Assembly: GCA_903832105.1 (NCBI GenBank)
Contig: CAILAO010000667.1
Span: 1 to 44,968, forward strand
Length of the DNA: 44,968 nt
Reading direction: 5' to 3'
DNA from: an uncultured Pseudomonadota bacterium
GTDB lineage: Bacteria; Bdellovibrionota_B; Oligoflexia; Oligoflexales; CAILAO01
This document shows, piece by piece, positions 866 to 24,306 of the stretch. Within the stretch, counting starts at the first letter, position 1. Each line of letters starts with the position of its first letter. The position numbers and the translations under genes were made by a program. The notes below the pieces were generated by a model. That model ran no database searches. It had not been told where the DNA came from and worked only from the letters and a program-made list of their open reading frames with translations.

Positions 866-3800
866 TTACATTTTTGCGGAGAGACATGCGGCAAGCGGAT
901 TTTGATCCCGTGAAATGGAAGCTGCCCTGTAGTCGTTATCGGTCAAAGGGGCTCCCCGGACTGTAAGTAACCATGCTTCCAAATATGGATCTCCCCAAGT
1001 AAGAAGACGGACACCTTCTTTGCCTGGTCGTTTCGTCCCATCGATATCTTCTGTTGGACCAGAGGGTGGGTGGCGATCTGCCAGTTCTCCGTTAAACGTG
1101 GCCAGTATTTCTTCAGACGAATTGACCCCCAAATGCTGAGGAGCATGTATCCAAGTGATTGATAGGCAGCCAAGTGTTCCGTCAGTCGTCTGTGCAAAGT
1201 CAGCATCAGGTTCAGGGACTTGACGGATCGTCATTCCCTGTGTGGGATGCTGAAGACACCAATATGCAAGTTGCTCTTGAGATGTATCAGATCGCGCTCC
1301 ACTTTGTATTGCCTCAAGGTCGAACTGCCCTGCTAACCCTTGAATTGCATCGGCAAGAGCTGGATTGGACTGATTTCCTGATTTTTCAAGCTGTTGGATA
1401 GCCTCTTCTCTTTCGATTTCACCTTGTGCAAGTTTTCTAAAAATCCTCGGCATTTCAGCCAAAATAGGCTGGAGCGGTCCGACGACATTTTCAAACACAC
1501 CGATGCGGTCCTTTAAGGCGAAGTAGGTATCTTCCTCGATAGTACCCCTGAAATACAGATTCGATACGAGCACGAATTTCGCATTTTGCCCTATCCGGTC
1601 GATCCTACCGATCCTTTGCTCGACACGCATGGGGTTCCAGGGTAGATCGAAGTTAATCAGAGCTGAGAATTCCTGTAGGTTAAGACCCTCTGAGGCTGCA
1701 TCGGTTCCTAATAGAATATCAATTGCTCGGGGATGGTTGCTTTTACAACGTCTTTTTACCTCAGCCTTGTCAACAATTTTCCAGGTATTGGATTGCGTGT
1801 CCCAGACTTCACCCCCTCTTCCAGAATAGCAAGCGATCTTATTGCCAAATCGCGCAACTAACTTATCGCGAATGAAATCCAACGTATCGAGATATTGGGT
1901 AAAGACGATTACTCGTAGGTTCTGTTGCCGTAAGCTCAAGAGCTTGTTTCTGAATTCAAGGAATTTACTTTCATCACCGAGGTGTGAAAGCTGATCAATG
2001 TAGTCCTGTAAATATATCCTTTCTGCTTCGAGTTTCGCCCGTGATTTTGGATCTTGGTAAAGTTGTCTTAATCGAGCTACTTCTTGATCAACAACTGCGG
2101 GAAAGTCAACACTGTCGTCATCATCTTCACCCTCTCCTAAGGCTCTTCTCTGTTTATCTTCTATTTCTTGTTCCAGGTCATTTTGAATAGCGAAAATCAG
2201 ATCGCGTCGGCGTTCAAGACTTTTTCGAAACGCGGCGAATGAACTCGCAAGTCTTTTACGGAATACTGCCATCAAAAAACCGACACCGCTGCGCTGACTT
2301 GGTGCAAGGTCGGCGAGGCGATAAAATCTGGAACAAAGTTCGTCAATACGTCGGTACAACGCTTCTTCAGCGGGAGACTTGAAGTCAACTGGAATGTCTT
2401 CGGGTTTTCGCTCCGCCAACCCAGCCCGAAGTAACCCCTTGCTTTTGTATGCTTTCAAGGTTTCGCGAGTATGTCGAAACATGTAAACCGCAAGAGGAGT
2501 TTGGCGTGCGATGTAGGGCGTCATGGCCTCAGCCTGTTCGCTAGTCAAATTCCGAAGTGACAGCGCGAGTGCAGGGCTTCGATTGTTAAGGTTTTGGAGC
2601 AACGCCGTCCAATTTAAGTTTGTCCAGCAGCTAGAAGGTTGTTGGGGCGGCAAAGCTGGAGCTCCCATTTTCACTGCAACACGGGTCATATCAATAACTG
2701 AGGATCTATCATTTACTGATGATGAGAAAATGCGCAGATTTTCAAAAAAGTTTTCGAAATCTCGCAATGATTGCCATGGACCCCATTTTGGATCATTCAA
2801 GCCCACTAAATCCAGCAAATCATGGACCTCATGTGAGGAAAGTTGCATTGGTGTAGCTGTAAGCAACCAAAGGCATTCATATAGTCGGCGATGTTTCAGC
2901 CCTTGAAGCAAACGAAGAAACTGATTCGGTTCATTTTGGCTGAATACTTGCCTTCTTGCTGCATGTGCTTCGTCGACGAGCACCGCATCCCACTTTGGTG
3001 CGCTGAATACCGCCTGCAATCGGTCTTGTCTTGCTATGAGGTGCCTGCTCACTATAATCAAGCCATCTTCAGCCCATGGATTGGATGTCCTTCGAGTTCG
3101 TCCTCCAACGTCCTCCAGAAGCAGACCATCGTAATACCAAGCAGTCAGAGCAAACTTTTCTCGAAGTTCCTCCATCCATTGGCGAATCAGGTTTTTTGGC
3201 GCAATCAATAAGACCCGCTGCAATTTCCCAGAAAGGATCAACGAACGCAGGACTAAACCACCTTCAATCGTCTTTCCTAGGCCAACTTCATCACAAAATA
3301 AGTAAGATCGAGGGAAGTTCTTGACCGCTAACCGACGGATTTTTGCTTGATGTGGAAACGGTTCGAATGGGTGTCCATCCACCCAAATTGGATTAAGAAT
3401 GTGCGACTCGCCATTTGACCTCTTGGGAGCGTCGATCAGCCATTGAGCGCAAATCCTGACATACTGGTCAATTGTTGGTGTTGTTGCGCCTTCACGGCTC
3501 AAGGGCTCGGTTGGGACGCCATCGGGCCGTTCAAACGCTCTTAAATGATCCTTTACAGCTTTCGGCAAGGGTAAAACTAATAAGCCGGCGTCATCGCCGT
3601 TCCAGATTTGTTCAAATCTCTCAATCGAGACCTGGATATCTTCCCGGTCAAGTTCATGAAACCAGCTTCGTTTGACCGAAAACTCTTCGCGATTTCTTGT
3701 CCAAGCGGCACTCGTTTCGTTTACAGACCCACTGAATTCGATGATGTTTCCATCGCTGTCGTAAAGGACGCCGACTTTGGGGTGAAATAAAGCACCTCCC

Positions 3801-4297
3801 TGACCTGGATAGCAAGGACGACCGGACATATCTAAGGGCAGTGCAATACGTACATCGAGAAGCCCGGTTGCAACCATCCATGCAAGGGCCCCGAGTCTGT
3901 CCCTGGCAATTGGATCCGCTTCTGGACTCCACCCTTTTGGCAGCCCTAGCCGAATGCAGTCAATATCCGACAAATTTAGGCGAGAAATTGCTGTGGTCTC
4001 GAGAGATTGTTCAAGTGCTTTTCTACCTTTTTGATATGCCTCTATATCTTCATTCGACCAAGTCGTACCCGTGATTAACCTCATTGGTGGGATCGACTGT
4101 TGTGGCAATTCCCGAACATTACTGATGAAGGCAGAAAGGCCGGTCGCAATTTGGATGAAAATGGTGGAATCAAAATAACCCGCCTGGCGATCATAGCGAA
4201 CTGCTTTACTGAGTATGGGTAAATAAAAATCGTTGACCAACATCCCGGCCTGGCCAGCATAATTGCGTTTAATATTAGTTAGGGAAGTGAAACTCAA
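866..4297 (-). CDS. PLD(HKD)-nuclease / SNF2-family helicase fusion protein
   Basis: 1143-aa ORF. N-terminal HxK motif FHPKVGVL...GSVNET. SNF2 motifs DEVGLGKT (I), VLVDEAH (II), LLTATPMQ (III) and GLNLQ..FDLPWNP..QRIGRIDRIGQ (V/VI). TTG start lies 6 nt after GGGAG and 3 nt after the upstream stop. Confidence 0.9.
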   Translation of the reverse strand: MSFTSLTNIKRNYAGQAGMLVNDFYLPILSKAVRYDRQAGYFDSTIFIQIATGLSAFISNVRELPQQSIPPMRLITGTTWSNEDIEAYQKGRKALEQSLETTAISRLNLSDIDCIRLGLPKGWSPEADPIARDRLGALAWMVATGLLDVRIALPLDMSGRPCYPGQGGALFHPKVGVLYDSDGNIIEFSGSVNETSAAWTRNREEFSVKRSWFHELDREDIQVSIERFEQIWNGDDAGLLVLPLPKAVKDHLRAFERPDGVPTEPLSREGATTPTIDQYVRICAQWLIDAPKRSNGESHILNPIWVDGHPFEPFPHQAKIRRLAVKNFPRSYLFCDEVGLGKTIEGGLVLRSLILSGKLQRVLLIAPKNLIRQWMEELREKFALTAWYYDGLLLEDVGGRTRRTSNPWAEDGLIIVSRHLIARQDRLQAVFSAPKWDAVLVDEAHAARRQVFSQNEPNQFLRLLQGLKHRRLYECLWLLTATPMQLSSHEVHDLLDLVGLNDPKWGPWQSLRDFENFFENLRIFSSSVNDRSSVIDMTRVAVKMGAPALPPQQPSSCWTNLNWTALLQNLNNRSPALALSLRNLTSEQAEAMTPYIARQTPLAVYMFRHTRETLKAYKSKGLLRAGLAERKPEDIPVDFKSPAEEALYRRIDELCSRFYRLADLAPSQRSGVGFLMAVFRKRLASSFAAFRKSLERRRDLIFAIQNDLEQEIEDKQRRALGEGEDDDDSVDFPAVVDQEVARLRQLYQDPKSRAKLEAERIYLQDYIDQLSHLGDESKFLEFRNKLLSLRQQNLRVIVFTQYLDTLDFIRDKLVARFGNKIACYSGRGGEVWDTQSNTWKIVDKAEVKRRCKSNHPRAIDILLGTDAASEGLNLQEFSALINFDLPWNPMRVEQRIGRIDRIGQNAKFVLVSNLYFRGTIEEDTYFALKDRIGVFENVVGPLQPILAEMPRIFRKLAQGEIEREEAIQQLEKSGNQSNPALADAIQGLAGQFDLEAIQSGARSDTSQEQLAYWCLQHPTQGMTIRQVPEPDADFAQTTDGTLGCLSITWIHAPQHLGVNSSEEILATFNGELADRHPPSGPTEDIDGTKRPGKEGVRLLTWGDPYLEAWLLTVRGAPLTDNDYRAASISRDQNPLAACLSAKM

Positions 4298-4300
4298 TTG

Positions 4301-7300
4301 CTACTCCCGCCAATCTCGGATCGCCAAGTCCCAGGCTCTTTTTGCAGCTACTATACATTTTTTCCATTCGTCTGCATCAGGCCGACGGTCAAATGCGGTT
4401 TGCAAAAGGTGCAGTGTGACTGCATACGCTCCTTTGAATTCGGTTGATGACCCATACTGACTTTCACGCATCCATTTTTTAAGTGGTTCGACCCCACTTT
4501 CTTGATTATCGGTCCCAGCCATAATTGAAATGGCATTCCAAACTGCGGCGCCCACGAAGTTGGCAAATTTTCTCTCAGTCCAATCACTCCCTCCTCTAGA
4601 GTTGCGCCCTCTGATACTTTCTCCAGATAACTGGCGAGAAAGGAGGTTCAGATCGACAGCAATTGGTGATTTCAGTGTAAAAATATCGGATTCAGTTTTG
4701 ACAAGATGCATTGATTTAAAGGCGTCTGGTTCGATGTTTAGGGACTTTGAGAGTTTCCGCACATCATCACTGTCAGCGACTTCACCTTGGAATGTATCCA
4801 ACCACAGCCACAATGCCTGTGTATTTCGATCAACGGTATCCGCTGTAAACTCACCATCAATATCTCCTGCTTTATTGCTAATCTCCTGTAGAATTTGATC
4901 GAGGCGAAACTTCGCAACCGCTCCGTATGCTTCTTCGAGTGCTTCCGTCAGGTCGAGCGTGTCACCACGTAAATTGGTGATCGGCCAATGCCGTCCAACC
5001 TCACCCAAAGCAGGTCCAAGAGCTGACAAATATAGATCAGTACCGAAGATCCCTTGACTCTGGAATTGGCTAGCCGCATTTCGTGCAACTTCTGCAACTT
5101 TTCTGCGTACGCGGTCCCAATTCCCCGTGACCTGGGAAGTCTGCTCGCGTGGAATACAAAGCAGCAATACTGTACTTCTCGCTGCGTCCAATCCACGAAC
5201 ATTCAAGCTGCTTTCAGCTTCAGTATGGACCGGAATCGAAGTCTTAATATCGAAACCTGCCTCAATAAGTGCACGACCCAAGGCTCTCCAAGCTTTGGTC
5301 ATTTTGTGATTGAACATCACGACCATTCGACCTGCTGGATGGAGAAGTATGCGAGCGCGGCGGAATACAGCGGCCATCTTCGATTCGTAAAATTGCTCTG
5401 CTCGTTCTGCTGCTGTCAATGGCTTTGGTCCAGCTGCTGTAGCTGCGAGTTTTTTACGATCCGAGATGGTTAATTTTTTGCCATTTTCCGACTTTGTATT
5501 GGCAAGTTTTTCATATTCTGCTGAGTACAGGGTGTTCCAGTCAGCTAAAGATTTATCTGCGTCAGCCTTCCAACGAACATTATTAGCGACTGCTTCGCGA
5601 TTTGTTTCGGCGAGTTCCTCTCTAAAAAACTCCTCAAGTCCAGGAAAATCATGTAATGCGCGCTTTAACCACACATAGAAGAAATTCGACAATTCTGAAT
5701 ACTGGATATTGTTATAATAAGGGGGATCTACGCAGATTAGATGGACTGTACCTGGGGCGGGAGTTTCTAATTGGCTGGCATCGTTGTTGGTGATTACCGG
5801 GACAATCACCTCGGGGCGGATAGTGTGCTTTGCGCCGCCCTCAGATGTTTTGGTTTCAATGGTACTGTCATCTTCGAGATCAGAATCTATTTCTTCGCTC
5901 TGCTCGGTTTCGTCGTCCTCAACTCCATCACTAGAGTCGTCGTCGCCGCCTCCAAGAGTCACATGCTCACCGTGGATCAAACCTGCAATCTGGGTGTACG
6001 CGCCAATTACCTGTGAAGCTCCCCACATCACAGTCTCTCGTGCACCTTCGAATTCGCAAAATGCCGGTCTGAATGCGAAATCGTGACGAGAAAACGTTTG
6101 AGTCACGGTTTTTCTACCATAGTGCCAAAATGTGTTTACACTATTGTAATTAACGACCTTGCTAACGATGAAGGCAAGGTACACTGATACAGCTTCGGCC
6201 TCATCAGGAGGCAATTCCTCACGAGCCTGCTGAGATGCCTTTCTTACTTCGTCGAGCACGGTCACAGCCACTAGCAGCTGACGGGGAAGAAAAAAATCTC
6301 TCCACCTGGACATCCCATACTCTCGAGGTCTTTTGTCCTCCATGATCTCTGGTACATTTTCCGAAGGAATTAGATCAGCCCAACGCGCTTCGTTTGCGGT
6401 CAACTCTTTTTCGGCTGCTCGGACAGCAGCTATGTCGGCCTCAGTTGGTACGCGGAATCTCCACATGAAACGGGTCTTTATCGATCCGTCCCTATAAGTC
6501 AGTTTTACTGGTACCTGAGAACAGACAGCATACATCTGTGCAGGAAGCCCACCTGGGGTCGCCTGCGCTGTTCGCTTTACGATGGATTCATCGACGACTT
6601 GCGCGCATCGTGGGCAGGTCGCATGACCGCCTTTAAAAGTCGGTGTGTTCCGCGGGTGCCAAGCATCTGATCCAAGGCTTGGCCATTTGCAATCCTTCCA
6701 TTCATCGACACCTACAATTTTGAATGTGCAGTCATTCCCTTGTTCTTTTGTAGGTACCTCTGGGAAAGCTGCCACTGATGCGGCAGGCTTCCCCTTTTTG
6801 GTGACAATGTGGAAATTTGTGCTGAGGGGGATATTGAGCGCACACCTCGTGCAAGGGACAGTGCGGCACCATAGCATTGCTTGTATTCGTTCGCTTCCTC
6901 CAGCTTCATGATTGGCAATGCTTTTGGAGTCAAAATGCTTCAATGCCTCTGATTTTGTCGAAGGCCACCAAGCGTCGCCTGCAAGACGAAAAAAGAAACT
7001 TTGCAATCTCGTCTCCACACCTGATGCCACGTATTGGCAGTATTTGGCAATTTTCCCTACCAATTCAGTGCAATGGCGGGCCGGGTATTCCAAAGTGGCT
7101 TTTTCTACGATTGCGGCAACAGGGTTAAGATCATTCGCATAGACTTTTAGGCCGTGACGAATTCCTTCCAAGGGAATGGCACCGCCGCCAGCCATAAAAT
7201 CGAGCATCACAACTGGCTGATCTTCTGGCAGCCGCAATAGTGACCTTGACTCATGAAGCAGGTGTTCTATTAAAGAGGAAGTCGGCGAAACTGTAAATGC

Positions 7301-7786
7301 AGGAGAGTGATTGTAAGCCCACCCGGCAGGGAGATGGATTGGTTTGTTTCCAATCAAATAGTTTTTCGATTCGGCAATCCGTCGGTAAGCAGCATCAGTA
7401 TCAGCATGAATACCAAGCGAACGCAACAAATCTCTGTGGGTTTTAGTTAGTGTTGTTGGATTGACTTCGGAAAGTAATTTTTGGAAAAAATCCCTGTGCT
7501 GTCGGAATTTATCGGGTAAATTCTCCAAATCTGTCAGACTCGGTTCTTGGAGTGCAGGAGGTAGCAGATCATCCGGTATTTTGAAGTCATGCGGTAGCAG
7601 CGCAGACAGAATTCCCACTCTGCATACCGTCGGTGGACGCCGTGCCCACCAAATGTGTAATCTGTTCTGAGGTGGTCGCTGCCGTGCGTTGTTATCCCTT
7701 TGACATTCTGCTGAAAGCGATGAGCACGGAAGTCCTGCTTCCATCAGAGATGGTTTTGTCTTTACAAAGTTTTGGCTCAAAATCAA
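4301..7786 (-). CDS. DUF1156-type amino (N6-A/N4-C) DNA methyltransferase-like protein
   Basis: 1161-aa ORF. LHIWWARRPP signature near the N-terminus, SAM-binding-like MLDFMAGGGAIPLEG..ANDLNP, catalytic ICVDPPYYN. ATGA overlap with the upstream gene. Confidence 0.85.
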   Translation of the reverse strand: MILSQNFVKTKPSLMEAGLPCSSLSAECQRDNNARQRPPQNRLHIWWARRPPTVCRVGILSALLPHDFKIPDDLLPPALQEPSLTDLENLPDKFRQHRDFFQKLLSEVNPTTLTKTHRDLLRSLGIHADTDAAYRRIAESKNYLIGNKPIHLPAGWAYNHSPAFTVSPTSSLIEHLLHESRSLLRLPEDQPVVMLDFMAGGGAIPLEGIRHGLKVYANDLNPVAAIVEKATLEYPARHCTELVGKIAKYCQYVASGVETRLQSFFFRLAGDAWWPSTKSEALKHFDSKSIANHEAGGSERIQAMLWCRTVPCTRCALNIPLSTNFHIVTKKGKPAASVAAFPEVPTKEQGNDCTFKIVGVDEWKDCKWPSLGSDAWHPRNTPTFKGGHATCPRCAQVVDESIVKRTAQATPGGLPAQMYAVCSQVPVKLTYRDGSIKTRFMWRFRVPTEADIAAVRAAEKELTANEARWADLIPSENVPEIMEDKRPREYGMSRWRDFFLPRQLLVAVTVLDEVRKASQQAREELPPDEAEAVSVYLAFIVSKVVNYNSVNTFWHYGRKTVTQTFSRHDFAFRPAFCEFEGARETVMWGASQVIGAYTQIAGLIHGEHVTLGGGDDDSSDGVEDDETEQSEEIDSDLEDDSTIETKTSEGGAKHTIRPEVIVPVITNNDASQLETPAPGTVHLICVDPPYYNNIQYSELSNFFYVWLKRALHDFPGLEEFFREELAETNREAVANNVRWKADADKSLADWNTLYSAEYEKLANTKSENGKKLTISDRKKLAATAAGPKPLTAAERAEQFYESKMAAVFRRARILLHPAGRMVVMFNHKMTKAWRALGRALIEAGFDIKTSIPVHTEAESSLNVRGLDAARSTVLLLCIPREQTSQVTGNWDRVRRKVAEVARNAASQFQSQGIFGTDLYLSALGPALGEVGRHWPITNLRGDTLDLTEALEEAYGAVAKFRLDQILQEISNKAGDIDGEFTADTVDRNTQALWLWLDTFQGEVADSDDVRKLSKSLNIEPDAFKSMHLVKTESDIFTLKSPIAVDLNLLSRQLSGESIRGRNSRGGSDWTERKFANFVGAAVWNAISIMAGTDNQESGVEPLKKWMRESQYGSSTEFKGAYAVTLHLLQTAFDRRPDADEWKKCIVAAKRAWDLAIRDWRE

Positions 7787-8397
7787 TCCTCGATAGAATC
7801 ATTAAACAAGGGAGCATTGTTCTCGTGTTTGAAGAGGACCTGCTGTACCTGTTCATTAGGTAGTTTTCGTTTCGGCCCTTCGATTGTCGGTTTCCGATCA
7901 ACCAGTCCTTTCGATGGAGATCCCTCATCGAGTTCCGCGAACCTTTCATCGGTTTGCTCAAAAGTGAGCAGAGTGCGAAATGCCGCCCTTGCAGCTTGTT
8001 GTCGATAACCATAAAAACACATGGTAAACCAATAAAGCACGACCTCATCTGGCAGTTCCAAAAGTCCCGACTTGAACATGGTTCTTTGAGGGGTTTTCAA
8101 CAGATACCTGGCTGATACAATCGCTAGGGCTAGCTTCATCCCTACGGCATTGGGAACCCAGTTTTCTGAGTCTGGCTTTAGAATGATCGGTATTACATTT
8201 TCCTTACTGCGAGCCTTAGAGTTAATCAACTCGACAATCGACTTAAGCGTGTCAATTGAATCGCTAGAATTGGCAGATCCCAAAACTATTGCGGCTGCCT
8301 TTGTGGTCATACGATCGGACAAGTTGGGATGCATCTGGATCTCCCAAACCTGACCTTTTTTTGTGTTTGCTTGTATCGATAAACAAAATTTCTCCAT
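7783..8397 (-). CDS. small protein in the position occupied by DUF3780 in DUF499/DUF1156 loci (assigned by synteny only)
   Basis: 204-aa ORF overlapping the upstream stop by 1 nt and the downstream start by 4 nt. No motif recognised. Confidence 0.55.
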   Translation of the reverse strand: MEKFCLSIQANTKKGQVWEIQMHPNLSDRMTTKAAAIVLGSANSSDSIDTLKSIVELINSKARSKENVIPIILKPDSENWVPNAVGMKLALAIVSARYLLKTPQRTMFKSGLLELPDEVVLYWFTMCFYGYRQQAARAAFRTLLTFEQTDERFAELDEGSPSKGLVDRKPTIEGPKRKLPNEQVQQVLFKHENNAPLFNDSIED

Positions 8398-11300
8398 CAG
8401 TTTTTGCTCCTATTGCGTCGCCTTGCTGGTACCAAGCGGACTGCGATTTGGCCCTGATCTGCATTCATTAGTGAAGTCCTGAATCCCTCTAAATGTTGAT
8501 CCGACAATTTTGGCGGGTCGTCAAACTTAAGGGTTGCAGTGATTGATACTTGCAATTCACCACTTGAGAATGACCAAATTGGAGCCATCAGCGTTTGTAT
8601 GTTTTCAAATTTACCTTCATACATGAGATTTATGGACTCATCCTTTTCACCGGTGTTTCTTCGGCCCTGCGCAGAAAGGGTAGAGTGAATTAAAGCGTTT
8701 TTAGGACGGTCTGCCCATGCAGCCCGTAGAGTATTATCGAAACTCTCTCTGTCCGAGACGCTAATAGTCAATTCAGCGACCCGAATGTCAGGCGACGGTG
8801 CAAGTGCCTCCCAGACTTCAGTCAGTGCCAAGCGGGGAGTATTCACTCGTTCTATGGGTTGAGGTCCGAACCCTGGTCTCAGCGGTGCGAGATTCTCTAT
8901 TAGCTTTTCCGAAGCGCTCTCAACTAGATGATATTCGCCAGCAGGATCAAACCTGACATGGTGAACATCAGCGTCTGTGTAAAACTCCCCTTCATCATTT
9001 TTTTTCCACAGGAACCACACCCGCTCACGGATACCTTCTTTGATGATTTCCTCGAGATCAAATCTCGTGAGGCTCCGCCAAATGTTCCGAGCGTTTCTTT
9101 CAACGTCCTCCATATTCATGCTGAGTGATCCAGCACTCCAACAACGAGCTTTTACATTAATAGCGGTCTGAAGAACAGATGGAGCGTCTGAAATGTCAGG
9201 GCCTGACCTGCGAGGGTAAATCCCCTTTTCTATAGCGGGCTGATACAACCACAGCTCTATAGAGTCGTCGAATCGCGGTTGTGAAGGCCATTCGTTCAAT
9301 TCCTGGGATCCGACCGCAATATTCAGTCCTTTTTGAAAAAGTATCCAACGATTTTCACGGACACCTTCCTGCATCGCGCGCCACAATACAGGGCGGTCTG
9401 GCAGCACTGGGAATAGAGGGCTCTGTTTTGCGGCATCCAACAGCTTCAAAGTCGACACGGTCGGTTTGTGTAAAGTGCCTTCTCTAGGCCAAAGATTATC
9501 TGAGATGTCACTGGTTTTCACAGTTGATACTGGCCGTATATTCTCCCGTATTGCAGCGGCAACATCGTACAAAAAAGTGGTATCGCTCAGTGTTGGGTTG
9601 AGTTCAGCGCTGTTTACGCGTGTGTAGAGTTTCTTCTCCTGTTTATCGTAATAGCTCCACAATGGGTCGGGATTGGTTGCCAATCCAGCCAGAAATGTGG
9701 GCAGGATGTCAGTTTGTTTGAGGACAATGGGAAGGTCTGGCTCTCTGCGCAATCGATCCCATACGTCTGCCGTAGAAATATGGGTTTCTGCCTCAGACCA
9801 CAGAGGGGGTCTTTTAATAATCTCTGCTGCTAACACCAGAGGTTGTGCTGGTGTCGACTCTGGGACAAGTTTCCCATTGTTTCGAAGGCACTGGAGAAGT
9901 GGAGCTTCGGCGGCAGCTCTCCGTGCAGTCCTACGTAAAGAATCCGGACCTTCAGGAACTTCGCCAAAATCAACCCGGTAGCATTCTAAAACGCTTGCTG
10001 GCGTTGAAGAAAAAAGCGATTCGTTTTCCGAGCTGCCGGCACGAGGGCACGCCAGGACTCGGTATGACTCTAGAATTCTGCTTCTGACGTTCACTTCGTG
10101 AATTCCAATGTTTTCCTTCACCTTTATCAAATCATCTTCAAGGGCCATAAATTCAGCGGGGACTCCGGAGACATTGTCGCGTGCCTTTTTCTTCATTTCG
10201 GCAAAATTCACGTTTTCAGTCGTAGCAACATTCTTTTGTTCTTGGATTATGTCCTCCTGAACGTGTTGCCATGCCATGACTGATCGGACTGCTTCTTTCA
10301 ACCCTTCGGTTTTTGTGCCTTCAGCCAGAAGGAAAAGCAGATTGTTGCGATAGATTCTCGGCTCAGAAGATGAACCTCGATTATTGAAAAGAGTTCTAAC
10401 AAAATTCAAGCGCTCAGAGGCTCCTGGCGCGACTGCTCCGACTTCCTTGTCGAAGTGGATGATGGCCAGCCTTAAGTGATCCGAATGGTCGGGAATGGCT
10501 GTCTGGTCAGAGGGAAATGGAATTATTTTAAATACGTTGAAGTTGCTGAAAATTTCTTTGATCCAATCTTCAAGGACACTCTTTACTTCGGCGGGGCGCT
10601 GTCTCAGATCGACGAGACGCTCTTGGAATCGCTTATTCACTGATGCTCTGGTTCGGAAAAGATAGTGAGACCCTTCTTTGCGCATATACCATGCATGTTT
10701 TTCAGTCTCCTCAAGTGCTTTTGGAACGTAGCTCAAGTCAACATCAGGCCGACCGACCGATAATGCGACTTCCGGGGAGGTAATTCCCTTCGATCCATCT
10801 GGCAGGCTATGAAGAAAAGTCACTAATGCTGATTCGGAGGCGGCTTTCCATGGCCAGCTAGTTTCTACATTCATGGAGTGTGTCGTTGCGCTGATACTAA
10901 CAACATCTGCCTCAAGTCCTCTTTCAAAACTCATTCGACCGAGGCGGCTAAGAATCTCGTCTCTAATTTCATTGCGAGTTAAGTCAACATGAAATGGATG
11001 GAGCATAAGCGTGTTGGGAATTGAGATTCTGTTTGCCCATACATACCTGATGAGTTTTGCTACTAATCGCAGAGCACCTCTAGTCGCCTGAAAATCAGGG
11101 ATATCCCCGAGTCGCTCAGCGAAAAGGCTGACCAGTTCTGGATGGAACGGATAGCAGGACTGAATTTGTTCACGATAATTTGGTTCGAAGGCTCGTCCAT
11201 CGATTATTGCCCCAGCATTTCTCTGCTTCTCGTAATACTCTGAATATAATTCGGCGACTTTTGGAGCATCTGCTGTCGAATATGAATCAAAGAGTCTCTT

Positions 11301-12209
11301 GCCAAGGACTGCGCCACGCTCATTGGCTTGAGTAGGAGTCAGATTTTTGACCTGACGACCAGAAATCAAACCGACTTCGTTTACTGATTCCATGACACTT
11401 GAGATGTATTGTTTTAACTCACCCGTTAACCTTCGGTTCGCGTCCTGTTCAGATGGCAATGTAAGGATGACGACAGTTTTGGGTCGTTGTGCCGCTATAC
11501 TGAAAAGTAACTGCAGAAATGTTGGAAATTGGCTGTTGACATGCGCTCGCGGATGATCGTCTTTAAGGGCTAAAGCGCGGGCCATGTAGAGCACTAACTC
11601 GTCAATAAGGATAAGAAGTGGTGCCTCCCCTAGAGATTTGGCAAAGTTTTCTCTCCCAGGCGCTATACCTTGCTCATCGTTGATTCTGATCAGTTCATAT
11701 CCCTTAATACCTCCAGCAAGTGCAGAGATTTGCCCCCACGGCGTGTATACCTTTAAGTTTGCGTCTTCAATGACATGATTTGTCCCGCTCAGCGGATCGG
11801 AGTCCTCACCAACGAAGGCTGCTATCTTGACTGTTCCCGCATCAGGGAACTGCGAAATATTAAAATCTCTTAGACAATGACTAAGCCGCGATCCTTCTCT
11901 TGCTGCATGCACGGCAGCAATTAAACTGTGCGTTTTGCCACCACCAAATCCGGTTTCTAAAAGAAACACGGGCGTGCCACCATCCTTTCCTGCCAAACGC
12001 TCAGTCACATCTTTGATTAATTGTTTAAGGTTCGCAGTCGGATAGGTGCCTCGGAAAAAACGTTCTGGGTTAAGATAATCCTGATGAGTGCCAGCGCGAG
12101 AAATGATAACGTCCCAAAGGTCTGCGGCGAAGATTGCGTCGGGTAACTCCCCCGCTAACACCTCTGGACGAGGTACGCATGTCTCAAAGATTGAGGGTAC
12201 CTTACTCAT
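8397..12209 (-). CDS. large P-loop ATPase, DUF499-like
   Basis: Walker A GFGGGKTHS and Walker B LLILIDELV. The ORF is open to 12326, but ATG 12209 (MSKVPSIF) overlaps the stop of the upstream HTH gene as ATGAGTAA. Confidence 0.8.
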   Translation of the reverse strand: MSKVPSIFETCVPRPEVLAGELPDAIFAADLWDVIISRAGTHQDYLNPERFFRGTYPTANLKQLIKDVTERLAGKDGGTPVFLLETGFGGGKTHSLIAAVHAAREGSRLSHCLRDFNISQFPDAGTVKIAAFVGEDSDPLSGTNHVIEDANLKVYTPWGQISALAGGIKGYELIRINDEQGIAPGRENFAKSLGEAPLLILIDELVLYMARALALKDDHPRAHVNSQFPTFLQLLFSIAAQRPKTVVILTLPSEQDANRRLTGELKQYISSVMESVNEVGLISGRQVKNLTPTQANERGAVLGKRLFDSYSTADAPKVAELYSEYYEKQRNAGAIIDGRAFEPNYREQIQSCYPFHPELVSLFAERLGDIPDFQATRGALRLVAKLIRYVWANRISIPNTLMLHPFHVDLTRNEIRDEILSRLGRMSFERGLEADVVSISATTHSMNVETSWPWKAASESALVTFLHSLPDGSKGITSPEVALSVGRPDVDLSYVPKALEETEKHAWYMRKEGSHYLFRTRASVNKRFQERLVDLRQRPAEVKSVLEDWIKEIFSNFNVFKIIPFPSDQTAIPDHSDHLRLAIIHFDKEVGAVAPGASERLNFVRTLFNNRGSSSEPRIYRNNLLFLLAEGTKTEGLKEAVRSVMAWQHVQEDIIQEQKNVATTENVNFAEMKKKARDNVSGVPAEFMALEDDLIKVKENIGIHEVNVRSRILESYRVLACPRAGSSENESLFSSTPASVLECYRVDFGEVPEGPDSLRRTARRAAAEAPLLQCLRNNGKLVPESTPAQPLVLAAEIIKRPPLWSEAETHISTADVWDRLRREPDLPIVLKQTDILPTFLAGLATNPDPLWSYYDKQEKKLYTRVNSAELNPTLSDTTFLYDVAAAIRENIRPVSTVKTSDISDNLWPREGTLHKPTVSTLKLLDAAKQSPLFPVLPDRPVLWRAMQEGVRENRWILFQKGLNIAVGSQELNEWPSQPRFDDSIELWLYQPAIEKGIYPRRSGPDISDAPSVLQTAINVKARCWSAGSLSMNMEDVERNARNIWRSLTRFDLEEIIKEGIRERVWFLWKKNDEGEFYTDADVHHVRFDPAGEYHLVESASEKLIENLAPLRPGFGPQPIERVNTPRLALTEVWEALAPSPDIRVAELTISVSDRESFDNTLRAAWADRPKNALIHSTLSAQGRRNTGEKDESINLMYEGKFENIQTLMAPIWSFSSGELQVSITATLKFDDPPKLSDQHLEGFRTSLMNADQGQIAVRLVPARRRNRSKN

Positions 12210-12426
12210 CCTGGGATCCTCCATGCAACCCACGCACAGTTCCGTATTTTTTGGATTCGATCCATTGCGCCAGATCAGTGCGAATAAAGCGCCATTGTCC
12301 TCGTACTTTGAAAGCGGGGATTTCACCTCCCTGCACCATCGTATAAACGGTTTTTTCGACCACTCTAAGCATCGCCGCTACCTCTGGCACTGTGAGGATC
12401 TCGGGCTGGATCCAGGTATTTGACAC
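12202..12426 (-). CDS. excisionase/MerR-type HTH DNA-binding protein
   Basis: ILTVPEVAAMLRVVEKTVYTMVQGGEIPAFKVRGQWRFIRTDLAQWI matches the excisionase-family HTH pattern. GTG 12426 is preceded by GGAAGGA. The ORF is formally open to ATG 12513. Confidence 0.7.
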   Translation of the reverse strand: MSNTWIQPEILTVPEVAAMLRVVEKTVYTMVQGGEIPAFKVRGQWRFIRTDLAQWIESKKYGTVRGLHGGSQDE

Positions 12427-12695
12427 TTTGGATTTCCTTCCATTATTTTCTAAAGGATTCCAAAGTATCAACTTTGATGAACTACGCCAAGAAAAATGCA
12501 TAAAAATTGCCAACTTTCAACATATTCCTTGTTACACAAAGGTCTCACCTCAAGGGTGGTTTGATCAAAAAATAGGCAGCTATGCCATTTGGTGCGTTTT
12601 TTCTGAAATGAACCCAAAAACTGTCAGGCTTAAGAAATGCTTCCGCAAGATCCGAGGACACTGTTGAAGTGGTTTTGCAATCAAATCCCGATAAA

Positions 12696-13493
12696 TTAGT
12701 ACCTGAGTAATGGACCGTTTTTGATCCACAGCAGAGTTAACCCCAACTCAATTTGCGGGAAATACCTTGCTTCTTCGAGCAGTGTTTCTTCCTGCAGATA
12801 ACGAGGCAGATCTTCAATCCAACAATTAGCATCGACGGAAGTCATATAATTCGCGGTTTTCTGACCATGCGATGATCTATAGGCTTCGCTGAACTGGTCG
12901 AGTGTTCCAGAGGAAATCCAATAATTCAGCTCAGAAAATGCTTTCGATTTTAAAGAATACTCCGTTTTGTTTTTTGAAAAGAAAACCAAGGCACATGCTT
13001 CATCAGTGGTATCTATATATCGTCTTGCTGCAGCGGAAAGAGAAACAGAAAATTCGGATGCCAGATTTTCGACTTCAGCCATCGAGGGTTTTCTCCGAAT
13101 TGCTTCTGGCCGAAATAACATGTCTGGCATTAGAAGTTCGGCTGCAAATTCATTAGCCTCTATTTCGAGATGATGTCCGCTGACCGTGGACCAACGAATC
13201 ATATCCTTTTTATCGCAGTAGAATGAGTTTCTTTGCTCTTTGTGCATCTCAAAATGACCGAGTTCATGCGCTATAGAAAATCGTTGCCGGGTAACATAAG
13301 GTTCATGAGAATTGATCGTAATAATCCCGCGCCCGTTGAATACTAAAAGCATAGCCTCCGATGTCCTTTGAGGTGCATAACGGACTCTAGCTCCCCGGTG
13401 TGCGCAAATAGCTTCGAGCTCAAGAAGGATTTCCTTCGAATCCAAAGAAAGATCTCTAATCAAATGCTGAGCCTTGACTTTGCCTAACGTCAT
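12696..13493 (-). CDS. ImmA/IrrE-family (CapP-like) zinc metallopeptidase
   Basis: HEXXH motif in FSIAHELGHFEMH, followed by about 120 aa of C-terminal domain as in IrrE/CapP. ATGA overlap with the upstream gene. Confidence 0.85.
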   Translation of the reverse strand: MTLGKVKAQHLIRDLSLDSKEILLELEAICAHRGARVRYAPQRTSEAMLLVFNGRGIITINSHEPYVTRQRFSIAHELGHFEMHKEQRNSFYCDKKDMIRWSTVSGHHLEIEANEFAAELLMPDMLFRPEAIRRKPSMAEVENLASEFSVSLSAAARRYIDTTDEACALVFFSKNKTEYSLKSKAFSELNYWISSGTLDQFSEAYRSSHGQKTANYMTSVDANCWIEDLPRYLQEETLLEEARYFPQIELGLTLLWIKNGPLLRY

Positions 13494-13906
13494 TTTTTTT
13501 CCGCAGGTAATATTCCTAAAATTTCACAATTCTCCAAAAAAGTGCGAATTTCATCCTCTGTCAACGTATCGCCTTTCTTGTTTCTATTGAAACACAATGC
13601 TTGTTGTTGCAGATCTGGACCGAGTGCACCACTCATCAATTTGTCAAAGAACTCGATTGGATTGGCAATAACACCATGTTTCTGCGACTTAAATGATTCC
13701 GCGACAATTTTGGCTGGCTTCAACCATGAATGTTTCAGCTCCTCACGTTCTGCATCAATCAGCTTGGTTACGCGATTGATCAAACGGTCGAGGTTGATGC
13801 CCTCTCTCTGAAAAACCTCCCGAAAAGCCTCTGTATCTGGATTCTCATGATCAAGGAGAATACCTAGCAACAACCTATGAATCTTATCGTTGCTGTTCCT
13901 ACTCAT
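13490..13906 (-). CDS. hypothetical 138-aa protein with no HTH recognised; partner of the peptidase
   Basis: ORF overlaps the upstream stop by 8 nt (ATGAGTAG) and the downstream start by 4 nt. Confidence 0.7.
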   Translation of the reverse strand: MSRNSNDKIHRLLLGILLDHENPDTEAFREVFQREGINLDRLINRVTKLIDAEREELKHSWLKPAKIVAESFKSQKHGVIANPIEFFDKLMSGALGPDLQQQALCFNRNKKGDTLTEDEIRTFLENCEILGILPAEKK

Positions 13907-14576
13907 TGAGTTCTCCTCCGATATTCAAGGTTTCCAAGATTCTACGAGCTTTTCTTGCAATCCTCCGGCGGGTGTTTCTAACTGCTGTTGGGGTTGAATC
14001 AGAAATCGCCGCGACAGAAATATTTGAAATTTTTTTATCAGTTTCTGCAAGTTCTTCCATTGCCAACAAGCAGAGAGTCTCTTCGCCGTCTGGTTCACAA
14101 GATTTATGCAATTTTTCAAGAAAAGTCCGAGAATACTCCTGCTGTTGGGATGCAATCTCCGCAGCTATCAGATTTGTCTCTGGGTCATCATCTCCTGGTA
14201 AGTCATTTATAACGCCTTCACCATTTTCAATTTGCTGTTTGGTGTCATAACGGTTTCTTCTGTGAGCCGCAGAGTAGACGAGATTGTAAACATCACTGTC
14301 GATAACATTCTTCAAGAATGCGTCCAGATCATCGCATGAGGGGTCCCAATGACGGTATCCAGAGCCTTCGATTCCGGCTTTAATACCAGCGAGTGTTTTT
14401 TCTATAGCACCACCAACAACATCTTCGATTTCCAATCCTTTGGGCAAACTCTCTGGCACACGCCAATAGTAAGATCTAACGCAACTCTGCGCATAGATGA
14501 GCAAATTACCCGTAAGCAATTTCCAATCAGCATCCAAGAATGCCGACAATTTCGAATTTTGCTTTGAATCGTCCAA
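13899..14576 (-). CDS. sigma-70/ECF-like protein (region 2-like and region 4-like segments)
   Basis: LEIEDVVGGAIEKTL...LDAFLKNVIDSDVYNLVYSAAHRRNRY is region-2-like. ISDSTPTAVRNTRRRIARKARRILETL is a region-4-like HTH. TTG start lies 9 nt after GAGG. Confidence 0.55.
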   Translation of the reverse strand: MDDSKQNSKLSAFLDADWKLLTGNLLIYAQSCVRSYYWRVPESLPKGLEIEDVVGGAIEKTLAGIKAGIEGSGYRHWDPSCDDLDAFLKNVIDSDVYNLVYSAAHRRNRYDTKQQIENGEGVINDLPGDDDPETNLIAAEIASQQQEYSRTFLEKLHKSCEPDGEETLCLLAMEELAETDKKISNISVAAISDSTPTAVRNTRRRIARKARRILETLNIGGELNE

Positions 14577-14845
14577 TCAGGTTAACCTCGCTACTAATGT
14601 TGACTGCTCAACAGACCCCCTTTTTGACCATCGCACCGCAAAAAAAATATTTGGCATACAACATAAATAAAAACGGGAAGTTAAAAAAATTTTCCATCGA
14701 AAACGGTCAAAATGATCCATTCCTCAGCAGCACTTAATGAGAGCACATTGGCATCCGTTAATCACCTAATTTTTTCGGGAGAAACGTCAGGTTCTTAGCA
14801 AACAATAATGGTTCGCAAAAACAGCTACTTATCAATGGAGGAAAC

Positions 14846-15982
14846 ATGTCAATCTCGTACGTTTCAGACACAACGAAGTTTATTCTTTGGGGAAAAGCGG
14901 CTGGCCGATGCGAATACTGCAACCGCCCAATTTACTTTGATAATTTGACAAAATGCGAATTCAATACCGCCTATATTGCGCACATAATTGCATCTAGAGT
15001 TGACGGACCGAGAGGGCATCCAACCGAGTCCGAGCGCTTGCGTGGTGACATATCCAACCTGATGCTGCTTTGTGATACGCATCATCGTCTGATTGATAAA
15101 GATGATGTGGAGGGGCATCCTGTGGACCTTCTGCGGGACATGAAGAAGAAACATGAAGAGCGAGTTTTCCTGCAAACCAACGTTTCCAACAAACAAAGCC
15201 ATGTAATTCTTTACGGCGAAAAAGTCGGATACAATAACTCCAACCTCACCTGGGAAAATGCGTTTGAGGCGATGACTCCAGAAAAGTACCCAGCTGAGAA
15301 ACAACCGATTATACTTGGGATCAGGAATAGCGCTCTGTGTGACGACGATCCAGAATATTGGGAGAAAGAGCGCAGAAACTTGAATCTGAACTTTGATCGG
15401 CTGGTGCGCCGCCAAGTTGAGGATGGACATATTGACCATGTCTCAGTTTTTGCGATTGCCCCTCAGCCTCTTCTTATTGAACTAGGGCGTTTAATCTCAG
15501 ATATTAGACCTGCGGAAGTGTACCAACTACAACGAGAACCAACCACATGGCGATGGCAGAATCATCCTGAAGTCAGCTTCCGACTGATACCGCCCGTCAA
15601 GGATCATGACGTTGTTGCCCTGAACATTTCACTGAGCGCAACGGTATCCGACGACAGAATATTCAATGTCTTAGGACCAAAATTGTCTATCTGGACACTT
15701 ACAATAGATTCACCGCACAACGACTTCTTGAAAACAAAAGAATCTTTATGCGGTTTTCGAAAATGCATGCGCACGGCATTCGATAAAATCAAAGCCAAAC
15801 ACGGGCACAACACTGTCCTGCATGTGTTTCCAGCAATGCCTGTGTCTGCGGCAGTCGAATTTGGCAGAGTTTGGCAGCCAAAAGCTGACATGGAAATGGT
15901 CATTTATGATGAGAATCGTAAAATCGGGGGATTTGTGGAAGCCTTCACGCTTCGCGGTCATGATTTTTTGCGCAAGGAGTGA
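14846..15982 (+). CDS. cap5: CBASS effector, HNH endonuclease fused to a SAVED-like sensor (Cap5-like)
   Basis: N-terminal HNH motifs CEYC..AHIIASRVDGPRGH..NLMLLCDTHHRLID, then about 270 aa of C-terminal domain. Lies directly upstream of a CD-NTase. GGAGGA RBS. Confidence 0.75.
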   Translation: MSISYVSDTTKFILWGKAAGRCEYCNRPIYFDNLTKCEFNTAYIAHIIASRVDGPRGHPTESERLRGDISNLMLLCDTHHRLIDKDDVEGHPVDLLRDMKKKHEERVFLQTNVSNKQSHVILYGEKVGYNNSNLTWENAFEAMTPEKYPAEKQPIILGIRNSALCDDDPEYWEKERRNLNLNFDRLVRRQVEDGHIDHVSVFAIAPQPLLIELGRLISDIRPAEVYQLQREPTTWRWQNHPEVSFRLIPPVKDHDVVALNISLSATVSDDRIFNVLGPKLSIWTLTIDSPHNDFLKTKESLCGFRKCMRTAFDKIKAKHGHNTVLHVFPAMPVSAAVEFGRVWQPKADMEMVIYDENRKIGGFVEAFTLRGHDFLRKE

Positions 15983-15988
15983 AAACAC

Positions 15989-17110
15989 ATGTATAAGCTA
16001 ACATCTGAGAACCTGGGACGCCTCTTGAATGAGCTGTACGAACATCTTGACATTCCACCAGAGAAACTGTTGCTTGCAAAAGAAAAATACATACATCTTG
16101 GGCAGTGGTTAAATCAAGATGCCGCTACAAATTTCAGAAATAGTTCTGAACTATATCTGCAGGGCTCAGCACTTCTAGGGACAGGAATACTCCCGATAAA
16201 ATTTGGAGACGAATTCGATTTAGACCTTGTCTATCGACGTGATATTCAAAAAGAATCAATCACTCAGACCGACTTAAAAAGGCAGGTTGGCGACCAGTTG
16301 GGGAGATATGTAAGCTACCTCTGTAATTCCAAGGATCTTGATATTCCCACCTTGGAGGAGGGCAAGCGATGTTGGACTCTTCGATATTCTGGGCGGTTTC
16401 ATATGGACATTTTGCCTGCGCTTCCTGATCCAGCATCTGAGTCTTTAATAAAACCCACAGACGGCATTTTGATCACAGACAAAGATCTTTCAAAGTGGCA
16501 ATTTAGCAATCCAAAAGGATACCACGTTTGGTTTCGTCAATCGATGATACACACATTGAATGAAAAGAGGTTGGCGTTGGCGAAATCGGCTAACGTTTCT
16601 GTGGAGGCAATCCCTGAGGATACTGTCAAAACAACCTTACAGAAAGCGATTCAAATCTTGAAACGTCATCGGGATTCGTGTTTCGAGGGAAACCCCAAGA
16701 ATAAGCCGGCTTCTACAATAATTAATACTCTTGCTGCCCTTGCATACAATAACAATGACGACATTGTTAATGATCTTCACCACATTGTGAATAACATGGC
16801 AAAGCATATCGAGACTCGAGGAAATGAATTATGGGTTCCAAATCCGATAAATCATAAGGAGAACTTTGCCGACCGATGGAGAGATAACAAGGAAAAGGCA
16901 GATGAATTTTTCCGATGGTTAGATTTGGCGCACGATACGTTTTCGATGCTGGCGATTGAAAATAACGAAAACAGTATTGCAAATCTGCTGTCGAAATCTT
17001 TCCGTATCGAAGGTGCTGAAAAGATTGCGAAATCGGCATATACACGTGCCGCGTTGGCAGCAGCAGCCAGCACGGTCACAAAAAAAACAGATCCGTGGAG
17101 TCGATCATAA
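15989..17110 (+). CDS. cGAS/DncV-like nucleotidyltransferase (CD-NTase)
   Basis: LQGSALLGTG...GDEFDLDLV (GS + DxD) and RFHMDILPA (third acidic residue). AAGGAG RBS. Confidence 0.85.
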   Translation: MYKLTSENLGRLLNELYEHLDIPPEKLLLAKEKYIHLGQWLNQDAATNFRNSSELYLQGSALLGTGILPIKFGDEFDLDLVYRRDIQKESITQTDLKRQVGDQLGRYVSYLCNSKDLDIPTLEEGKRCWTLRYSGRFHMDILPALPDPASESLIKPTDGILITDKDLSKWQFSNPKGYHVWFRQSMIHTLNEKRLALAKSANVSVEAIPEDTVKTTLQKAIQILKRHRDSCFEGNPKNKPASTIINTLAALAYNNNDDIVNDLHHIVNNMAKHIETRGNELWVPNPINHKENFADRWRDNKEKADEFFRWLDLAHDTFSMLAIENNENSIANLLSKSFRIEGAEKIAKSAYTRAALAAAASTVTKKTDPWSRS

Positions 17111-17111
17111 C

Positions 17112-24249: not shown

Positions 24250-24273
24250 AGCAGATTTCCTCCTGTTGATAGT

Positions 24274-24306
24274 AAAAAAAAAACGGCCCCCAACCATGGT
24301 GGCCGC
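24274..24306 (-). terminator. rho-independent terminator or attenuator between the 98-aa gene and the EcsC-like gene
   Basis: On the minus strand, a GC stem CGGCC..GGCCG is followed by T10. It ends about 10 nt before the AGGAGG RBS of the next gene. Confidence 0.55.

Follow-up and report, generated by a model that had tools for sequence, protein, structure and literature searches.

A putative MANTIS-like operon with a DUF7680 protein in the small-subunit position on a metagenomic contig

Operon organization

We analyzed a 44,968-nt stretch of DNA (here called the window) that is one whole metagenomic contig of an uncultured Pseudomonadota bacterium (CAILAO010000667.1, assembly GCA_903832105.1), and we describe from it a five-gene operon that encodes, in order of transcription, a small helix-turn-helix (HTH) protein, a DUF499 ATPase, a DUF7680 protein, a DUF1156 DNA methyltransferase, and a fusion of an HKD nuclease of the phospholipase D (PLD) family with an SNF2 helicase. 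An earlier note, made from the sequence without database searches, had placed five consecutive minus-strand open reading frames (ORFs) at positions 866 to 12426 and joined them into one translationally coupled unit, and the ORF list of the window bears out both their number and their coordinates. The longest ORFs, all on the minus strand, have the limits given in Table 1 except for those of the ATPase (8397-12326) and the HTH protein (12202-12513), for which independent gene calls on two identical ENA metagenome contigs gave a 1270-aa protein starting with ATG at 12209 and a 74-aa protein starting with GTG at 12426.

As read from the sequence, the HTH stop overlaps the DUF499 start by 8 nt (ATGAGTAA at 12202-12209), base 8397 is common to the TGA of the DUF499 gene and the ATG of the small-protein gene, and the methyltransferase TAG is followed by CAA and then by the SNF2 TTG at 4297, a gap of +3; the earlier note had these three junctions right. 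It had given the overlap of the small-protein stop with the methyltransferase start (7783-7786) as ATGA. This overlap reads TTGA, and the methyltransferase therefore starts with TTG at 7786 or, by the same ENA gene calls, two codons later with TTG at 7780. Homologues of the helicase start at the residue aligned with TTG 4297. Catalytic motifs are intact (Walker A and B, FxGxG and DPPY, GxGKT and DEAH, HxK...GSxN), and translations and alignment contain every motif that the earlier note had cited (GFGGGKTHS, ILIDELV, LHIWWARRPP, DPPY, HKD, DEAH). The stretch from 866 to 12426 is thereby confirmed as a real, intact, coupled operon, and it lies far beyond chance because three of its ORFs exceed 1100 codons and about 20 loci in several phyla share the synteny of its four-gene core. 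A megablast search of plasmids with the whole locus found no near-identical record.

TABLE 1 Coordinates of the operon and of other features of the window
Feature	Positions	Strand	Evidence
HKD-SNF2 fusion, 1143 aa: N-terminal HKD (PLD-family) nuclease and Swi2/Snf2 helicase, MtsD-like effector	866-4297	-	SNF2-rel 3.7e-17, Helicase_C 1e-15
DUF1156 N6-adenine DNA methyltransferase, 1161 aa, MtsC/HmaB-like	4301-7786	-	Pfam DUF1156 4.7e-12
DUF7680 protein, 204 aa, in the MtsB (DUF3780) slot	7783-8397	-	Pfam DUF7680 3.3e-5, 24.5 bits against a cutoff of 24 (borderline)
DUF499 ORC/Cdc6-type AAA+ ATPase, 1270 aa, MtsA/HmaC/BrxC-like	8397-12209	-	Pfam DUF499 1e-24
Excisionase-type HTH_17, MAD1-like DNA-binding protein, 74 aa	12202-12426	-	Pfam HTH_17 1.7e-17
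Inverted repeat, 20-nt arms (12420-12439 and 12452-12471), 16/20 complementary, 12-nt spacer	12420-12471		Repeat search
CapP, M78 peptidase	12696-13493	-	PADLOC 1.2e-55
Two translationally coupled ORFs upstream of CapP	13490-13906, 13899-14576	-	ORF list, no family match
SAVED-HNH effector	14846-15982	Divergent from CapP	CBASS
CD-NTase	15989-17110	Divergent from CapP	CBASS
E2-like gene	16956-17765	Divergent from CapP	CBASS
DnaB_C helicase	22333-23151	-	Family match
EcsC-family protein	23299-24297	-	Family match
Tyrosine integrase	29656-30594	+	Family match
ORF of 793 aa, overlapping the polymerase gene	31941-34322	-	ORF list, no family match
Family-B DNA polymerase, 1182 aa	34309-37857	-	Family match
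Large serine recombinase	40591-42297	+	Family match

Families and domains of the large proteins

The triad of helicase, methylase, and ATPase was named Hma by Payne et al. 2021, with 1,638 loci in 26 phyla. The same family, reported in >3,500 taxa, has been described as BREX-related (BR) systems built around DUF499, within which type 2 is defined by a helicase with an N-terminal HKD endoDNase together with a stand-alone DUF3780 gene, the latter being present in 98% of 1,120 taxa (PMC12839542). In Halomonas meridiana, HmaA, an Snf2 helicase with a C-terminal PD-(D/E)xK nickase, protects against T4, and HmaB and HmaC are annotated as DUF1156 and DUF499, respectively (Liu et al. 2024, PMC11232893). 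The earlier note had held that no recognition motif, trigger, or mechanism was established for such an architecture, a statement that is now out of date. Shaw et al. (preprint of 24 September 2026, bioRxiv 10.64898/2026.09.23.753747) renamed Gao_RL (Gao_29)/BR type 2 as MANTIS and dissected a single Pseudomonas system biochemically and structurally. There, MtsA (DUF499) loads MtsC (the DUF1156 methyltransferase); MtsB, a small dimeric protein with a strongly positive surface that the authors call unique to MANTIS, is required to activate methylation; and MtsA, MtsB, and MtsC together are needed to methylate one strand of an asymmetric 6-bp site. Restriction takes all four proteins and both ATPase activities and is best at inverted unmodified sites, MtsD forms a dimer that resembles SauUSI and has a single PLD active site, plasmids are restricted too, and some operons carry an Arc/CopG repressor, MtsR (bioRxiv 10.64898/2026.09.23.753747).

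Profile matches and motifs support all four domain assignments of the earlier note (excisionase-type HTH, DUF499 ATPase, DUF1156 DPPY methyltransferase, HKD-SNF2 fusion), including the DUF499 and DUF1156 matches for which it had called (Table 1). The ATPase carries the Walker A motif GFGGGKTHS and the Walker B motif LLILIDE (LLILIDELV). It matches HmaC (6e-80) and DUF499 (2.6e-37) in PADLOC and DUF499_antiphage in NCBIfam (2e-51; 175 bits against a cutoff of 1200), and it is 48 to 63% identical over its full length to the ATPases of other loci with a DUF7680 gene (L003-L027). Its top high-scoring segment pair reaches 216 to 243 bits against Type-1 ATPases and 114 bits against canonical MANTIS MtsA; for the ATPases of DUF7680-type loci as a group, the corresponding values are 176 to 283 bits against the Type-1 proteins of Thermus and Rhodobacter and 106 to 131 bits against MtsA. 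A neighbor-joining tree of the N-terminal 520 residues likewise places canonical MtsA outside the group formed by the DUF7680-type and Type-1 ATPases. Neither the ATPase nor the methyltransferase sequence drew a useful match from the PDB.

The methyltransferase runs from a DUF1156 N-terminal region (LHIWWARRPP) through motif I (FMAGGG), a target recognition domain (TRD) insert with a CxxC...CxxC zinc ribbon, and motif IV (DPPY at residue 687) to a long C-terminal domain, and this order of motif I, TRD, and motif IV is the group-alpha layout of MANTIS MtsC. It matches HmaB (1.2e-51) and DUF1156_MTase (3.7e-25) in PADLOC and DUF1156_antiphage in NCBIfam (8.6e-39; 133 bits against a cutoff of 1000). 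Against the Type-1 proteins of Thermus and Rhodobacter it scores 1e-19 and 2e-15 over about 1,000 residues, compared with 1e-9 over about 310 residues against canonical MtsC.

The helicase has the motifs GLGKT and DEAH and a single N-terminal HKD motif (HPKVG...GSVNET), and, each chain having just one such motif, two chains must pair to form an active site. In a 17-sequence alignment that includes the canonical Acinetobacter baumannii protein (itself a match to PLDc_2 at 7.6e-13), the H, K, and GSxNE residues do not vary. NCBIfam phospholipD_antiphage matches residues 12 to 948 (6.7e-91; 306 bits against a cutoff of 1100), PADLOC returns DrmD (2e-59), PbeA (1e-57), PLD_Helicase (6e-56), HmaA (3.2e-55), and also BrxH, and the nearest solved helicase core is that of RapA (1.6e-29). 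DUF3883 and NOV_C had no match in the Pfam scan of this protein.

Upstream regulator and candidate promoter

The 74-aa HTH protein, whose match to NCBIfam antiphage_MADS1 (2e-20, 72.8 bits) lies below the cutoff of 80, is a putative transcriptional regulator in place of the Arc/CopG repressor MtsR of some MANTIS operons. MAD1 of the MADS system is a dispensable, regulator-like first gene (bioRxiv 10.1101/2023.03.30.534895). Searches with tblastn found no significant HTH homologue upstream of other related loci, and when a conserved upstream HTH was sought in 19 of them, the sole candidate was a marginal HTH_17 ORF in Pyxidicoccus (L004:5982-6170; 4e-5, below cutoff). Other relatives have a WYL protein or an ORF of ribbon-helix-helix (RHH) appearance in the upstream position.

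Just ahead of the HTH gene lies an inverted repeat (Table 1) whose 16/20 complementarity was reached by just 1 of 300 shuffles. It covers the -35 (TTGATA) and -10 (AATAAT) elements of a sigma-70-like promoter at 12471-12442 on the minus strand, which matches at 10 of 12 positions, and it extends to the GTG start of the HTH gene, which makes it a plausible operator. We regard the repeat as a candidate operator and promoter of the operon, a role that is plausible from the sequence. Judging by its position and by the parallels in related systems, the HTH_17 protein probably represses its own operon.

The DUF7680 small protein

The earlier note had recognized a 204-aa protein between the ATPase and the methyltransferase; what had escaped it was that this protein belongs to DUF7680 rather than DUF3780/MtsB. 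DUF7680 is the sole Pfam family above cutoff, no DUF3780 match appeared up to E=10, and PADLOC gave no match. Among its 53 homologues (90% clustering) are two, from Tautonia rosea and Pyxidicoccus caerfyrddinensis, that carry the NCBI name "DUF7680 family," and a profile search of 1.84 billion representatives yielded 94 clusters only, with 10 of the 10 that were scanned against Pfam being DUF7680. The literature searched does not mention DUF7680.

An AlphaFold 2 (AF2) model of the protein (mean predicted local distance difference test [pLDDT] score, 78.8) shows an alpha+beta domain at residues 1 to 150 with the element order b-b-b-a-b-a-a-a-a (b, strand; a, helix), followed by a disordered tail. 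With this model as query, Foldseek returned no PDB match below E=0.1, and the MtsB crystal structure was absent from the matches. DUF3780 has been described as a four-stranded sheet with five helices (PMC12839542). The order of elements in DUF7680 agrees with that description and with an AF2 model of DUF3780, the common order being b-b-b-a-(b)-a-a-a-a with a disordered tail; the low confidence of the DUF3780 model (pLDDT, 50.9) permits no three-dimensional superposition, so that the comparison of folds is one of secondary-structure order alone. An hhalign comparison of a 22-sequence alignment of the small-protein homologues gave a probability of 0.2% with the DUF3780 protein of A. baumannii and of 0.7% with an alignment of 17 DUF3780 sequences. 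The sole aligned stretch is a conserved L-F-(D/E) motif in the disordered, mostly basic tails of both families, which may be a short docking motif.

Other features recall MtsB, among them the shared slot and a size of about 200 aa. The relatives of the window protein are basic (median isoelectric point [pI], 10.3; 9.8 to 11.1 in 21 of 21 aligned relatives), most of them ending in a K/R-rich tail (KKRTxSSR). Three independent ASCH-DUF7680 fusions occupy the same slot, and ASCH/PUA-DUF3780 fusions have been reported for type 2 (PMC12839542). From its position and these parallels, we think it rather likely that DUF7680 acts as a functional substitute for MtsB, as either an extremely diverged homologue or an independent analogue.

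Two side observations concern these families. In a Gemmata sp. metagenome-assembled genome (MAG; L030, 7067-8507), a DUF7680-like gene (Pfam 1.2e-7) stands directly upstream of a DUF4942 gene, and genes for DUF499, DUF1156, and SNF2 are absent from its vicinity; DUF7680 can therefore occur outside BR loci. Across Gammaproteobacteria, Bacillota, and Desulfobacterota, homologues of DUF3780/MtsB keep 73 to 90% identity to the Acinetobacter query, which is unusually high for a defense protein and thus indicates either recent wide horizontal spread or strong constraint.

Synteny across relatives

About 20 loci, distributed over Planctomycetota, Myxococcota, Nitrospinota, Chloroflexota, Desulfobacterota, Pseudomonadota, and Cyanobacteriota, have the genes for DUF499, DUF7680, DUF1156, and HKD-SNF2 in this order and on a single strand. 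The arrangement is present in Tautonia and Pyxidicoccus and also on plasmids (Nostoc, Aminobacter, Pseudanabaena, Sinorhizobium, and Leptolyngbya) whose small proteins match Pfam DUF7680 at 1e-44 to 1e-48. At least 13 further genome loci (Planctomycetota, Nitrospinota, Chloroflexota, Desulfobacterota, Beta- and Gammaproteobacteria) encode large proteins that are 48 to 66% identical to those of the window over their full length. Wherever enough flanking sequence is available, DUF7680 directly follows the ATPase gene, usually overlapping it or a few bases apart. This position is kept across phyla and in two divergent ATPase clades; embedded cargo varies and sits downstream of DUF7680. Related loci were found both on plasmids and beside integrases.

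At L005, L007, L012, L016, L017, L020, and L034, additional genes separate DUF7680 from the methyltransferase or the methyltransferase from the helicase, in agreement with the "guilt-by-embedding" pattern reported for Hma. Nostoc has VapBC between methyltransferase and helicase, Pseudanabaena and Leptolyngbya have MazF/RHH together with several more embedded genes, L034 has a GmrSD_N gene, and L016, L017, and L020 have inserts of 1.8 to 4 kb. In Cognatazoarcus halotolerans (L022, 6034-6213), the DUF499 gene has a 59-aa ORF immediately upstream that matches DUF6079, the BrxC-type profile, over its first 26 positions (1.7e-7); this ORF may be a remnant or a mis-split N terminus of an ATPase gene.

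Relationship to known defense systems

The locus is a member of the broad Hma/BR family. The earlier note had named a match to an already characterized system as one of the outcomes that would refute it, and the matches to PADLOC HmaA, HmaB, and HmaC and to the NCBIfam anti-phage models largely supply one. The closest characterized system is MANTIS. Both have four genes on one strand, encoding an ATPase, a small protein (about 200 aa), a DPPY methyltransferase of group alpha whose TRD is central, and an HKD-SF2/Snf2 fusion, and preceded by a small DNA-binding regulator; the helicase of the window has the N-terminal HKD endoDNase that replaces TUDOR in type 2; and NCBIfam models of the canonical proteins match all three large window proteins. 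An identical order is found in the canonical "anti-phage" set of NCBIfam, located on the A. baumannii plasmid pSSMA17_1 (DUF499, DUF3780, DUF1156, PLD-helicase). The differences lie in the small protein, which is DUF7680 and not the DUF3780/MtsB by which membership is defined, in the regulator (HTH_17/MAD1-like here, Arc/CopG in MANTIS), and in the length of the large proteins (1270, 1161, and 1143 aa, versus 1022, 948, and 905 aa for those of A. baumannii). The roughly 250 additional residues of the ATPase may be the FnIII-FnIII-RRM module that has been described for half of the type-2 ATPases. The locus falls outside type 2/MANTIS in lacking the defining DUF3780 subunit and in not reaching equivalog-level similarity.

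With Hma (type 1), the locus shares the families of the Snf2 helicase, the DUF1156 methyltransferase, and the DUF499 ATPase; Hma is the best PADLOC match for the latter two, and embedded genes tend to occur in both window-related and Hma loci. Type 1 differs in its helicase, which has an N-terminal TUDOR and a C-terminal active PD-(D/E)xK nuclease (DUF3883/NOV_C) where the window has an N-terminal HKD, in its gene order (helicase, methyltransferase, ATPase, as in L008 and L010), and in having no conserved small subunit. Taken with the ATPase and methyltransferase scores, the HKD helicase therefore makes the locus a mixture of Type-1-like ATPase and methyltransferase, type-2-like helicase, and a different small subunit. 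It is possible, at slightly less than even odds in our estimate, that the DUF499/DUF7680/DUF1156/HKD-SNF2 loci form a distinct and so far undescribed BR lineage, "type 2b," in which DUF7680 has replaced MtsB. The DUF7680-type helicases of Pyxidicoccus and Nostoc are already included in the general BR helicase alignment of the NAR 2026 paper.

The earlier note had drawn its parallels with BREX and DISARM. The ATPase, N6-methyltransferase, and Snf2 helicase of Type-3 BREX are homologous (PMC12839542), and PADLOC matches to BrxC are weak and those to PglXI and BrxHI/BrxHII moderate; unlike Type-3 BREX (BrxC, PglXI, BrxHII, PglZ, BrxA, BrxF), the operon is without PglZ, BrxA, and BrxB/BrxF and has an HKD nuclease fused to its helicase. 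None of the PglZ and BrxB/BrxF models in Pfam, PADLOC, and NCBIfam matched any of the five operon products, and the flanking genes are those of a CBASS (cyclic oligonucleotide-based antiphage signaling system) operon. DISARM (DrmA, DrmB, DrmC, DrmD, DrmMI) has the same overall logic, with an Snf2 helicase (DrmD being the top PADLOC match of the helicase core), a PLD nuclease, and an adenine methyltransferase, but here PLD is fused to the helicase rather than being a stand-alone DrmC, the methyltransferase is of DUF1156 type, and a DUF499 ATPase is present. The core of DrmA plus DrmB is missing; operon and flanks have no DUF1998 (DrmB) protein, and matches of DrmD/DrmA type are confined to the SNF2 helicase core. 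Readings of the helicase matches as DISARM, Pbe, or BREX were rejected, since their partner genes are missing. MADS (mad1-8) is also a methylation-based defense with a resemblance between MAD1 and the window HTH; MAD2-8, including the mandatory MAD6, MAD7, and MAD8, are absent from the operon by PADLOC and NCBIfam, and membership was rejected because the resemblance is confined to the HTH.

Proposed mechanism and alternatives

By analogy with MANTIS, we consider it likely (probability of roughly 0.7) that the operon works in the same way, methylation marking host DNA and unmarked DNA being cut. What we observe here is the set of genes, their intact motifs, and their order with its conservation across loci; the steps of loading, hemimethylation, and cleavage are modeled on the MANTIS work. 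The DUF499 AAA+ ATPase would load the DUF1156 methyltransferase onto a short asymmetric recognition sequence, where DUF7680, in the role of MtsB, would license N6-adenine methylation of one strand; ATP hydrolysis would then recycle the complex, leaving host sites marked as self. On unmodified incoming DNA, the same recognition complex would recruit or activate a dimer of the HKD-SNF2 protein, which would translocate with ATP and cut through a single PLD site at the dimer interface, most efficiently, we expect, between sites in inverted pairs. The HTH_17 protein (74 aa), whose gene is translationally coupled to that of the ATPase, would repress the operon at the inverted repeat that overlaps the promoter. 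The earlier note had proposed the same self-marking methylation logic, which has since been demonstrated for MANTIS.

Several points weigh against a MANTIS-like working. The large proteins are only 25 to 31% identical to those of MANTIS, over partial lengths, and their 175, 133, and 306 bits stay below the NCBIfam equivalog cutoffs (NF042962-4) of 1200, 1000, and 1100; the ATPase and methyltransferase score higher against Type-1/Hma proteins than against canonical MANTIS. Sequence similarity between DUF7680 and DUF3780 is undetectable (hhalign probability, <1%), the fold comparison is hampered by the poor DUF3780 model, and the window copy is an outlier in its own clade, with a pI of 7.7 and an acidic tail where its relatives have a basic one. 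In MANTIS itself, DNA cleavage was not reconstituted in vitro (bioRxiv 10.64898/2026.09.23.753747). From Type 1 comes the further objection that in H. meridiana, the one tested system, HmaA alone protected against T4, and phage from an HmaB-expressing host behaved no differently, so that no effect of methylation was seen (PMC11232893).

The alternative that these last results suggest is a Type-1 BR/Hma-like working, in which the helicase-nuclease would act against phage largely on its own, as an effector sensing some feature of the phage. The PADLOC scores speak for it (HmaC over DUF499, 6e-80 versus 2.6e-37; HmaB over DUF1156_MTase, 1e-51 versus 4e-25), as does the closer relationship of ATPase and methyltransferase to the Thermus and Rhodobacter Type-1 proteins than to canonical MANTIS. 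Yet the helicase of the window has the N-terminal HKD typical of type 2, not the C-terminal PD-(D/E)xK (NOV_C/DUF3883) of HmaA; translational coupling of the four genes and the strict conservation of their order argue for a joint function, and MANTIS restriction does need all four proteins. T4 DNA being hypermodified, the Halomonas methylation test is also, by our own inference, not decisive. We hold this alternative to be unlikely. Somewhat less probable again is that DUF7680 is no core subunit and instead an "embedded" passenger, that is, an independent small defense or anti-defense gene or a reader of modified DNA. Embedded genes are carried by 62 to 66% of Hma loci, the seven window-related loci listed above have extra genes at other points of the operon, and the Gemmata MAG has a DUF7680-like gene without DUF499. 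Such cargo is variable and lies downstream, however, whereas DUF7680 always directly follows the DUF499 gene, across phyla and in both ATPase clades, and a constant slot is how MtsB/DUF3780 behaves, which is found in 98% of type-2 loci.

It has also to be asked whether the main beneficiary of the operon is the mobile element on which it lies, for which it would be a module of addiction or plasmid exclusion, rather than a phage defense of the native host. The contig has a tyrosine integrase, a large serine recombinase, a family-B DNA polymerase, and a DnaB-like helicase, relatives of the operon lie on plasmids or beside integrases, and MANTIS restricts plasmids. None of this is incompatible with defense, though; the adjoining CBASS operon favors defense as the selected function, and anti-phage activity has been demonstrated experimentally for Gao_RL/MANTIS and HmaA. 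We give service to the element as the main function very little credence.

Under the MANTIS-like reading, the unusual features of the locus are limited to the DUF7680 small subunit and the different upstream regulator. Its value lies in the DUF7680 alternative and not in the architecture; otherwise it is an ordinary member of a known defense family on a mobile element. With this locus and about 20 relatives, DUF7680 is a second small-protein family in the slot next to the ATPase, and its comparison with the enigmatic MtsB is a natural one for dissecting the role of the small subunit. The current definition of type 2, in requiring DUF3780, may miss a lineage. Should "type 2b" hold true, the comparison would show which features of the small subunit are relevant to ATPase-driven methyltransferase loading, with dimerization, a basic surface, an LF-containing tail, and fusions to ASCH readers as the candidates.

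Genomic context

The CBASS operon that adjoins the five-gene operon on its upstream side occupies positions 12696 to 17765 (Table 1). Its M78 peptidase was considered as a regulator of the five-gene operon, the A. baumannii locus having an XRE-M78 fusion upstream, and was rejected in that role; the PADLOC match to CapP and the divergently transcribed CBASS genes assign it to CBASS. One of the two coupled ORFs upstream of CapP may be a CapH-like partner. Further along, a DnaB-like helicase, an integrase, a polymerase, and a recombinase on one 45-kb contig suggest a mobile element carrying a defense island. We take the combination of polymerase and recombinases to be reminiscent of self-synthesizing elements such as pipolins. 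The window has no tRNA genes to mark an integration site. Just after the CBASS genes, a 269-aa ORF (17930-18739) matches PD-(D/E)XK (9.6e-13) with a short additional match to UvrD_C_2, and it may be a truncated helicase-nuclease or an accessory nuclease.

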